A stretch of 39,096 nt of DNA from Escherichia phage T7. The notes under the pieces were generated by a model. The model had not been told where the DNA came from and searched no databases. It worked only from the letters and a program-made list of their open reading frames with translations. The stretch lies in sequence record AY264777.1, one strand, 5' to 3'. A program made the position numbers and the translations under genes. This document shows positions 1-39,096 of this stretch, piece after piece; position 1 is the first letter of the stretch; each line of letters starts with the position of its first letter.

Positions 1-137
1 TTCCCCCATAAGGGGTACCTAAAGCCCAGCCAATCACCTAAAGTCAACCTTCGGTTGATCTTGAGGGTTCCCTAAGGGTTGGGGATGACCCTTGGGTTTG
101 TCTTTGGGTGTTACCTTGAGTGTCTCTCTGTGTTCCT
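1..137. repeat. Left direct terminal repeat, partial (window starts about 23 bp inside the 160-bp repeat)
   Basis: 1..120 is identical to 38960..39079 at the other end; the last 17 bp differ from the right copy at 2 positions. Confidence 0.9.
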
Positions 138-149
138 ATCTGTTACAGT

Positions 150-330
150 CTTCTAAAGTATCCTCTTAAAGTCACCTCCTAACGTCCATCCTAAAGCCAA
201 CACCTAAAGCCTACACCTAAAGACCCATCAAGTCAACGCCTATCTTAAAGTTTAAACATAAAGACCAGACCTAAAGACCAGACCTAAAGACACTACATAA
301 AGACCAGACCTAAAGACGCCTTGTTGTTAG
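150..330. repeat. Left-end array of short CCTAAAG-like repeats (T7 end-proximal short repeats)
   Basis: Irregularly spaced cctaaag/cttaaag/cataaag heptamers, e.g. accagacctaaagaccagacctaaagac; non-coding. Confidence 0.6.
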
Positions 331-364
331 CCATAAAGTGATAATCTTTAATCATTGTCTTTAT

Positions 365-387
365 TAATACAACTCACTATAAGGAGA
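365..387 (+). promoter_or_regulatory. T7 RNAP promoter phiOL
   Basis: taatacaactcactataaggaga, 21/23 match to the T7 consensus. Confidence 0.8.
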
Positions 388-438
388 GACAACTTAAAGA
401 GACTTAAAAGATTAATTTAAAATTTATCAAAAAGAGTA

Positions 439-476
439 TTGACTTAAAGTCTAATCTATAGGATACTTACAGCCAT
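439..476 (+). promoter_or_regulatory. E. coli sigma70 early promoter A1
   Basis: -35 ttgact (439-444), 17-bp spacer, -10 gatact (462-467), start near 475; matches the recalled T7 A1 context. Confidence 0.8.
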
Positions 477-565
477 CGAGAGGGACACGGTGAATAGCCA
501 TCCCAATCGACACCGGGGTCAACCGGATAAGTAGACAGCCTGATAAGTCGCACGAAAAACAGGTA

Positions 566-604
566 TTGACAACATGAAGTAACATGCAGTAAAATACAAA
601 TCGC
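566..604 (+). promoter_or_regulatory. E. coli sigma70 early promoter A2
   Basis: -35 ttgaca (566-571), -10 taaaat (590-595), start near 603. Confidence 0.8.
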
Positions 605-690
605 TAGATAACACTAGCAGCGTCAACCGGGCGCACAGTGCCTTCTAGGTGACTTAAGCGCACCACGGCACATAAGGTGAAACAAAACGG

Positions 691-728
691 TTGACAACAT
701 GAAGTAAACACGGTACGATGTACCACAT
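691..728 (+). promoter_or_regulatory. E. coli sigma70 early promoter A3
   Basis: -35 ttgaca (691-696), -10 tacgat (714-719), start near 727. Confidence 0.8.
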
Positions 729-813
729 GAAACGACAGTGAGTCACCACACTGAAAGGTGATGCGATCTAACGAAACCTGACCTAAGACGCTCTTTAACA
801 ATCTGGTAAATAG

Positions 814-870
814 CTCTTGAGTGCATGACTAGCGAATAACTCAAGGGTATCGCAAGGTGCCCTTTATGAT
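814..870 (+). promoter_or_regulatory. Probable RNase III processing stem-loop R0.3
   Basis: Imperfect inverted repeat ctcttgagt...actcaaggg followed by ccctttatgat upstream of gene 0.3. Confidence 0.45.
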
Positions 871-901
871 ATTCACTACTAACTGCACGAGGTAACACAA
901 G

Positions 902-1255
902 ATGGTTATGTCTAACATGACTTACAACAACGTTTTCGACCACGCTTACGAAATGCTGAAAGAAAACATCCGTTATGATGACATCCGTGACACTGATGAC
1001 CTGCACGATGCTATTCACATGGCTGCCGATAATGCAGTTCCGCACTACTACGCTGACATCTTTAGCGTAATGGCAAGTGAGGGCATTGACCTTGAGTTCG
1101 AAGACTCTGGTCTGATGCCTGACACCAAGGACGTAATCCGCATCCTGCAAGCACGTATCTATGAGCAATTAACGATTGACCTCTGGGAAGACGCAGAAGA
1201 CTTGCTCAATGAATACTTGGAGGAAGTCGAGAAGTACGAGGAGAATGAAGAGTAA
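902..1255 (+). CDS. ocr: Gene 0.3 Ocr, DNA-mimic anti-restriction protein (117 aa)
   Basis: ORF track 902..1255; acidic protein matching recalled T7 Ocr apart from 3 substitutions. Confidence 0.92.
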
Positions 1256-9865: not shown

Positions 9866-10320
9866 TGGCTCGTGTACAGTTTAAACAACGTGAATTTACT
9901 GATGCAATCTTTGTTCACTGCTCGGCTACCAAGCCAAGTCAGAATGTTGGTGTCCGTGAGATTCGCCAGTGGCACAAAGAGCAGGGTTGGCTCGATGTGG
10001 GATACCACTTTATCATCAAGCGAGACGGTACTGTGGAGGCAGGACGAGATGAGATGGCTGTAGGCTCTCACGCTAAGGGTTACAACCACAACTCTATCGG
10101 CGTCTGCCTTGTTGGTGGTATCGACGATAAAGGTAAGTTCGACGCTAACTTTACGCCAGCCCAAATGCAATCCCTTCGCTCACTGCTTGTCACACTGCTG
10201 GCTAAGTACGAAAGCGCTGTGCTTCGCGCCCATCATGAGGTGGCGCCGAAGGCTTGCCCTTCGTTCGACCTTAAGCGTTGGTGGGAGAAGAACGAACTGG
10301 TCACTTCTGACCGTGGATAA
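9865..10320 (+). CDS. 3.5: Gene 3.5, lysozyme (N-acetylmuramoyl-L-alanine amidase, RNAP inhibitor) (151 aa)
   Basis: ORF 9865..10320; MARVQFKQREFTDAIFVHCSATK... Confidence 0.95.
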   Translation: MARVQFKQREFTDAIFVHCSATKPSQNVGVREIRQWHKEQGWLDVGYHFIIKRDGTVEAGRDEMAVGSHAKGYNHNSIGVCLVGGIDDKGKFDANFTPAQMQSLRSLLVTLLAKYESAVLRAHHEVAPKACPSFDLKRWWEKNELVTSDRG

Positions 10321-10383: not shown

Positions 10384-12424
<2,041 letters not shown>

Positions 12425-13511: not shown

Positions 13512-15626
13512 ATGATCGTTTCTGACATCGAAGCTAACGCCCTCTTAGAGAGCGTCACTAAGTTCCACTGCGGGGTTATCTACGACTACTCCACCGCTGA
13601 GTACGTAAGCTACCGTCCGAGTGACTTTGGTGCGTATCTGGATGCGCTGGAAGCCGAGGTTGCACGAGGCGGTCTTATTGTGTTCCACAACGGTCACAAG
13701 TATGACGTTCCTGCATTGATCAAACTGGCAAAGTTGCAATTGAACCGAGAGTTCCACCTTCCTCGTGAGAACTGTATTGACACCCTTGTGTTGTCACGTT
13801 TGATTCATTCCAACCTCAAGAACATCGATATGGGTCTTCTGCGTTCCGGCAAGTTGCCCGGAAAACGCTTTGGGTCTCACGCTTTGGAGGCGTGGGGTTA
13901 TCGCTTAGGCGAGATGAAGGGTGAATACAAAGACGACTTTAAGCGTATGCTTGAAGAGCAGGGTGAAGAATACGTTGACGGAATGGAGTGGTGGAACTTC
14001 AACGAAGAGATGATGGACTATAACGTTCAGGACGTTGTGGTAACTAAAGCTCTCCTTGAGAAGCTACTCTCTGACAAACATTATTTCCCTCCTGAGATTG
14101 ACTTTACGGACGTAGGATACACTACGTTCTGGTCAGAATCCCTTGAGGCCGTTGACATTGAACATCGTGCTGCATGGCTGCTCGCTAAACAAGAGCGCAA
14201 CGGGTTCCCGTTTGACACAAAAGCAATCGAAGAGTTGTACGTAGAGTTAGCTTCTCGCCGCTCTGAATTGCTCCGTAAATTGACCGAAACGTTCGGCTCG
14301 TGGTATCAGCCTAAAGGTGGCACTGAGATGTTCTGCCATCCGCGAACAGGTAAGCCACTACCTAAATACCCTCGCATTAAGACACCTAAAGTTGGTGGTA
14401 TCTTTAAGAAGCCTAAGAACAAGGCACAGCGAGAAGGCCGTGAGCCTTGCGAACTTGATACCCGCGAGTACGTTGCTGGTGCTCCTTACACCCCAGTTGA
14501 ACATGTTGTGTTTAACCCTTCGTCTCGTGACCACATTCAGAAGAAACTCCAAGAGACTGGGTGGATCCCGACCAAGTACACCGATAAGGGTGCTCCTGTG
14601 GTGGACGATGAGGTACTCGAAGGAGTACGTGTAGATGACCCTGAGAAGCAAGCCGCTATCGACCTCATTAAAGAGTACTTGATGATTCAGAAGCGAATCG
14701 GACAGTCTGCTGAGGGAGACAAAGCATGGCTTCGTTATGTTGCTGAGGATGGTAAGATTCATGGTTCTGTTAACCCTAATGGAGCAGTTACGGGTCGTGC
14801 GACCCATGCGTTCCCAAACCTTGCGCAAATTCCGGGTGTACGTTCTCCTTATGGAGAGCAGTGTCGTGCTGCTTTTGGCGCTGAGCACCATTTGGATGGG
14901 ATAACTGGTAAGCCTTGGGTTCAGGCTGGCATCGACGCATCCGGTCTTGAGCTACGCTGCTTGGCTCACTTCATGGCTCGCTTTGATAACGGCGAGTACG
15001 CTCACGAGATTCTTAACGGCGACATCCACACTAAGAACCAGATAGCTGCTGAACTACCTACCCGAGATAACGCTAAGACGTTCATCTATGGGTTTCTCTA
15101 TGGTGCTGGTGATGAGAAGATTGGACAGATTGTTGGTGCTGGTAAAGAGCGCGGTAAGGAACTCAAGAAGAAATTCCTTGAGAACACCCCCGCGATTGCA
15201 GCACTCCGCGAGTCTATCCAACAGACACTTGTCGAGTCCTCTCAATGGGTAGCTGGTGAGCAACAAGTCAAGTGGAAACGCCGCTGGATTAAAGGTCTGG
15301 ATGGTCGTAAGGTACACGTTCGTAGTCCTCACGCTGCCTTGAATACCCTACTGCAATCTGCTGGTGCTCTCATCTGCAAACTGTGGATTATCAAGACCGA
15401 AGAGATGCTCGTAGAGAAAGGCTTGAAGCATGGCTGGGATGGGGACTTTGCGTACATGGCATGGGTACATGATGAAATCCAAGTAGGCTGCCGTACCGAA
15501 GAGATTGCTCAGGTAGTCATTGAGATCGCACAAGAAGCGATGCGCTGGGTTGGAGACCACTGGAACTTCCGGTGTCTTCTGGATACCGAAGGTAAGATGG
15601 GTCCTAATTGGGCGATTTGTCACTGA
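13512..15626 (+). CDS. 5: Gene 5, DNA polymerase (704 aa)
   Basis: ORF 13512..15626; family A polymerase with N-terminal 3'-5' exonuclease ([13 protein letters not shown]). Confidence 0.97.
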
Positions 15627-38936: not shown

Positions 38937-39096
38937 TCTCACAGTGTACGGACCTAAAGTTCCCCCATAAGGGGTACCTAAAGCCCAGCCAATCACCTAA
39001 AGTCAACCTTCGGTTGATCTTGAGGGTTCCCTAAGGGTTGGGGATGACCCTTGGGTTTGTCTTTGGGTGTTACCTTGAGTGTCTCTCTGTGTCCCA
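38937..39096. repeat. Right direct terminal repeat (160 bp)
   Basis: 38960..39079 identical to 1..120; begins tctcacagtgtacggacctaaag. Confidence 0.9.

Follow-up and report, generated by a model that had tools for sequence, protein, structure and literature searches.

The 160-bp direct terminal repeat of bacteriophage T7 was reportedly described by Dunn and Studier in 1983. In T7 maturation, the single repeat copy of a concatemer junction is duplicated, and an earlier, sequence-only reading of the DNA analyzed here started from the sound and established premise that copies regenerated from one concatemer-junction copy should match. Because there is one repeat copy per junction, a virion with discordant copies would give concordant progeny within one cycle. 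Our literature search on the processing of T7 concatemer junctions found passing mentions only. A second described system that bears on genome ends is methodological: primer-derived sequence and an untemplated 3′ A are a general artifact of Sanger sequencing from PCR products.

We analyzed the terminal repeat in a stretch of 39,096 nucleotides from Escherichia phage T7 (record AY264777.1, one strand, 5′ to 3′; hereafter the window). It belongs to a set of five records (AY264774–AY264778) which we take to be the Bull-lab T7 series, the original paper presumably being Bull, Badgett, Rokyta and Molineux 2003 (J Mol Evol 57:241-248). The members of the series and the coordinates of the features are collected in Table 1.

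Terminal repeat copies and their two mismatches

An ungapped alignment of window positions 1–137 with positions 38960–39096 contains exactly two mismatches, T at 134 (left) against C at 39093 (right), and T at 137 (left) against A at 39096 (right). Positions 1–133 equal 38960–39092 exactly, an identical stretch of 133 bp by both direct reading and alignment. The sequence-only reading had placed the mismatches near the inner boundary and at the last base, which the alignment bears out, and its shared variant bases are real differences from wild-type T7 in both copies (Table 1); the identity that it described is likewise real, but its length of 120 bp was an understatement. A repeat search of the window returned a single direct-repeat family (1–136 and 38960–39095, 99%), and chance is no plausible source of a 137-nt repeat shared by the two ends of a sequence of 39 kb.

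In T7 numbering, window positions 134 and 137 are repeat positions 157 and 160, where wild-type T7 has C and T, respectively, in both copies. The right copy begins 23 nt further out, and positions 38937–38959 read TCTCACAGTGTACGGACCTAAAG, the true start of the 160-bp T7 repeat; these bases are missing at the left terminus of the window, where the record is incomplete (a 23-nt left gap in the whole-genome alignment).

Table 1 Features of the terminal repeats in the window and records of the same submission series
Feature	Window position	Strand	Remarks
Left terminal repeat copy	1..137	+	Repeat positions 24-160 of 160; aligned to AY264774 and to the right copy
Right terminal repeat copy	38937..39096	+	All 160 repeat positions; carries G>A (38970) and C>T (39018), like the left copy
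Two mutations in both copies	11..59	+	11 = 38970, G>A; 59 = 39018, C>T; relative to wild-type T7
C>T mutation at repeat position 157	134..134	+	Read from template in the left-end amplicon
Inferred footprint of a wild-type reverse primer	39075..39095	+	At most repeat positions 139-159, at least 147-159; includes C at 39093
Terminal A in place of wild-type T	39096..39096	+	Probably an untemplated 3′ A at run-off of a product ending at C159
Submission series			AY264774, wild type; AY264775, isolate K; AY264776, isolate K115; AY264778, isolate P82

The two copies stand in direct orientation at both genome ends, and they are homologous to the T7 repeat together with its flanking unique DNA. Compared with the 160-bp repeat of T7 (V01146 / NC_001604), the window repeat is about 98% identical and leads into the unique left-end sequence of T7 (ATCTGTTACAG...), whereas it differs by three mutagen-type substitutions (repeat positions 34, 82, and 157, the last being recorded in the left copy only), by a final base recorded as A, and by a left copy that is 23 nt short. 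The two substitutions that are present in both copies, at 11/38970 and 59/39018, are a positive control for homogenization between copies. What is expected of a terminal repeat and is not found in the record is identity of the copies within one genome, and we attribute these two mismatches, on comparison of the related sequences, most likely to the sequencing method and not to the DNA.

Mutational background and relatives of the genome

Window positions 1–1200 match AY264778 (T7 isolate P82) at 100% identity and positions 24–1223 of wild-type T7 (V01146, NC_001604, and AY264774) at 98.8%, and the right end of the window is 99.1% identical to wild-type T7. We then relied on an alignment of five genomes (the window, AY264774, K, K115, and P82). 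Relative to wild-type AY264774, the window has 306 substitutions, 286 of which (93%) are G:C>A:T transitions; on the + strand, C>T (159) is slightly more frequent than G>A (127), and a 5′ purine stands next to the mutated G in 84% of the 286 transitions vs. 51% in the background. This transition spectrum and the 5′-purine context we take to be the signature of alkylating, nitrosoguanidine-type mutagenesis.

P82 is back at wild type at four of the sites mutated in the window, and it carries nearly all of the window mutations together with 20 new substitutions of a different spectrum, so the window is ancestral to P82. The 20 additional substitutions are of a nonmutagen spectrum, many of them G>T, and P82 further differs from the window by small deletions: two of 1 bp at wild-type positions 10248 and 13936 (around 9409 and 13096 in P82), where the P82 record is without the gene 2.8 and gene 4.7 CDSs, and one of 12 bp in gene 7.3 (around 18742 in P82).

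A larger deletion, of 819 bp and thus in-frame in length, is located at window position 2146/2147 inside gene 0.7 (protein kinase), corresponding to positions 2170–2988 of wild-type AY264774. In the K line the deletion is another one, of 821 bp from wild-type position 1759 onward, and the deletions in the gene 0.7 region of the window and of the K line are independent losses in the same nonessential early region.

The window and K have 25 differences from the wild-type record in common (e.g., at window positions 10220–10221, 14253, 18730, 29878, 35323, 35548, and 35621), and the two lines are therefore not fully independent. Several of these 25 sites, such as GT>TG at wild-type 11062–11063, are not of the mutagen type, and the set points to a pre-adapted ancestor of both lines, to parallel adaptation, or to reference errors. 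Another of the common sites is G>T at wild-type position 15095. It looks like the gene 5 change at 15094 (A248S) of an adapted T7 in another Bull-lab paper (PMC3470554), given a presumed one-base offset from V01146 numbering.

Terminal repeats in the sibling records

At repeat position 157, P82 has the same state as the window, T in the left copy and C in the right. Its record boundaries differ (the record starts at repeat position 20 and ends in ...CCC), and the discordance is thus seen in what is apparently a separate assembly of a later stock. From the differing boundaries, and from nothing else, we infer that the ends of P82 and K115 were re-sequenced and not copied from the parent records.

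K and K115 differ from the window in their repeat mutations, which in the K line are at repeat positions 18, 60, 138, and 147, none of them common to the window. Positions 60 and 138 are mutant in both copies. At position 147, both K and K115 have T in the left copy (position 123 in the AY264775 and K115 records) and the wild-type C in the right copy, while the C>T at position 18 is visible in the right copy only, the left copy being too short. Across the two lines, both copies cover six repeat mutations. Four of them, up to and including repeat position 138 (34, 60, 82, and 138), are concordant, and the two at or after 147 (147 and 157) are discordant, with the wild-type base in the right copy at both; over positions 139–159, none of the four evolved records departs from wild type in its right copy. 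If discordance were random, the chance of such an arrangement would be about 1/15 × 1/4 = 0.017 by simple combinatorics.

The record ends are ragged as well. At the left, 19–24 nt of the repeat are missing from each of the four evolved records, and because the deposited left ends are short, a "complete genome" record is not complete at its ends. At the right, the window ends in CCCA, P82 in CCC, K in CCCA, and K115 in ...GTG, vs. CCCT in the wild type, and the true terminal T is shown in none of the four evolved records. K, K115, and P82 are thus like the window in three respects: short left ends, no terminal T, and mutations of the last 21 nt that appear in the left copy alone.

Source of the discordances

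The T at 134 is, as judged from the aligned genomes, a genuine lineage-specific C>T mutation. It is present also in the descendant P82, and P82 is the only one of the 103 records matching window positions 88–148 with an identity of at least 99%. Its type, a G:C>A:T transition, and its context, a 5′ purine beside the mutated G, are those of 84% of the 286 transitions in this genome. In the phage, the C>T at repeat position 157 would almost certainly be present in both repeat copies. We considered and rejected an artifactual origin of this T, because a wild-type primer cannot give a mutant base, the T is common to P82, and it fits the mutagen signature.

The A at 39096 is the sole T>A among the 306 substitutions in the genome, and none of the best 12 records listed for the last base aligns to it. 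A final A stands where the wild type has T in both the window and K, and it is not seen in P82 or K115; it is probably an untemplated 3′ A. The terminal A common to the window and K could in principle be inherited, though their repeat mutations differ.

We consider that the discordances most likely come from the sequencing of the right end, i.e., from PCR-primer sequence plus an added A, and not from the phage DNA (with a probability of roughly 0.85). A mutagenized T7 genome would have been Sanger-sequenced from PCR products, and its right end would have been amplified with a wild-type reverse primer located inside repeat positions 139–159, with the 5′ end at C159. The footprint of this putative primer would be 13–21 nt long, because position 138 is concordant, 147 and 157 are mutant in the left copy only, and the right copy is wild type over 139–159. 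Bases within the footprint would be those of the primer, and phage mutations there would be masked; one candidate is 5′-GGGACACAGAGAGACACTCAA-3′, and any other primer with its end at T7 39936 would also serve. The C at 39093 would then have been copied from the primer, hiding the C>T at repeat position 157. The product would end at C159, and a Taq-type polymerase would add an untemplated A, which would give CCCA in two records; the A at 39096 would occupy the place of a never-sequenced T160, and in P82 the added A would have been trimmed off. The first 23 bases missing from the left end may be the matching footprint of a left-end primer, or of a read start.

Several observations are consistent with a masking primer. 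From the last concordant mutation (138) to the record end (159) there are 21 nt, an ordinary primer size. The discordant positions (147 and 157) are both within this primer-length terminal stretch and have the wild-type allele there, and the pattern recurs in the window, P82, K, and K115, all with different boundaries. The likeness to the general artifact of PCR-product Sanger sequencing is that a wild-type stretch of primer length at the extreme end masks mutations, and that an extra A follows the last primer base. The difference is that here it is the comparison of four records, from which the discordance pattern and the mutation spectrum are read directly, and not documentation, that points to a primer and to its extent.

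The same laboratory used ABI BigDye sequencing from PCR products (PMC3470554) and sequencing from PCR products or the viral genome (PMC2680503). A literature text search for the putative end-primer sequence gave no match, and a search on the accession series gave no primer or end-sequencing details, the VIRIDIC preprint using AY264776 merely as a test genome. With a direct reading of the right end on virion DNA, the C at 39093 would have come from the template.

Some other artifact of the genome ends, with poor-quality right-end bases padded or edited to the reference, or miscalled, during Sanger assembly, is improbable. Such handling would likewise leave the right copy of either line with wild-type bases, and Ns do stand near record ends (e.g., the seventh base of K). 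However, padding to the reference predicts ...CCCT everywhere instead of the four endings listed above, and it leaves the ragged ends unexplained, while miscalling would call for four independent errors all towards wild type, which is unlikely.

Population heterogeneity, which the sequence-only reading had raised, would mean a C/T mixture at repeat position 157 with the consensus called differently at each end. We regard it as more doubtful still, even though the phage was heavily mutagenized (306 substitutions, 93% G:C>A:T) and new repeat mutations must go through a mixed state: the same left-mutant, right-wild-type calls are found in P82 after its further, recovery passages, an analogous discordance is found at another site in K and K115, and the right copy is wild type every time. 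Mutations further from the end (34, 82, 60, and 138) are concordant, and a mixture explains neither the terminal A nor the short left ends. The pattern in the sibling records instead supports another suggestion of that reading, an end-specific artifact that includes an untemplated terminal A. Its interpretation holds as far as an end artifact is concerned; it had left the primer unnamed as a cause and had overlooked the 23-nt truncation at the left.

A real and stable difference between the copies in virion DNA, with a right-terminal stretch of at most 21 nt not regenerated from the junction template shared with the left copy, is the least credible of these explanations, and we consider it very improbable. 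The bare pattern, recurring in two lines and persisting in their descendants, agrees with it, but it contradicts the established concatemer-junction model of T7, and we know of no mechanism for a stable difference between T7 repeat copies. The right copy is moreover always wild type and never a new variant, and the terminal A and the short left ends point to method. That the discordance is kept from the window to P82, and likewise from K to K115, each time with the wild-type base near the right terminus, cannot be a property of the DNA.

Two further candidates were rejected: a right-end cut at a shifted place, with a shorter repeat as its result, under which the wild-type bases beyond the cut still need explaining, and Illumina A-tailing or an assembler k-mer overlap, as the records are from 2003, contain Ns, and have ragged ends of Sanger type, and the repeat is not k-mer-sized.

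Implications for T7 genome ends

The region is the usual T7 terminal repeat, in a laboratory-mutagenized genome that had been published before, and the mismatch is most likely an artifact of the record and not a biological feature. If the record closes with primer sequence plus an added A, the virion is predicted to end in ...GTGTTCCT, with T at the equivalent of 39093 and a terminal T, and to begin at the left with TCTCACAGTGTACGGACCTAAAG; the corrected sequence would most likely have T at 39093, T at 39096, and 23 additional bases at the left end. The ends of Sanger-era phage records may hold primer sequence and an added A, and copy differences there should not be taken as biology. The concordant mutations at 34, 82, 60, and 138 illustrate regeneration from a single junction copy, and they offer a small positive control, in that all repeat mutations lying beyond the suspected primer footprint are carried by both copies, as expected under the single-junction-copy model.
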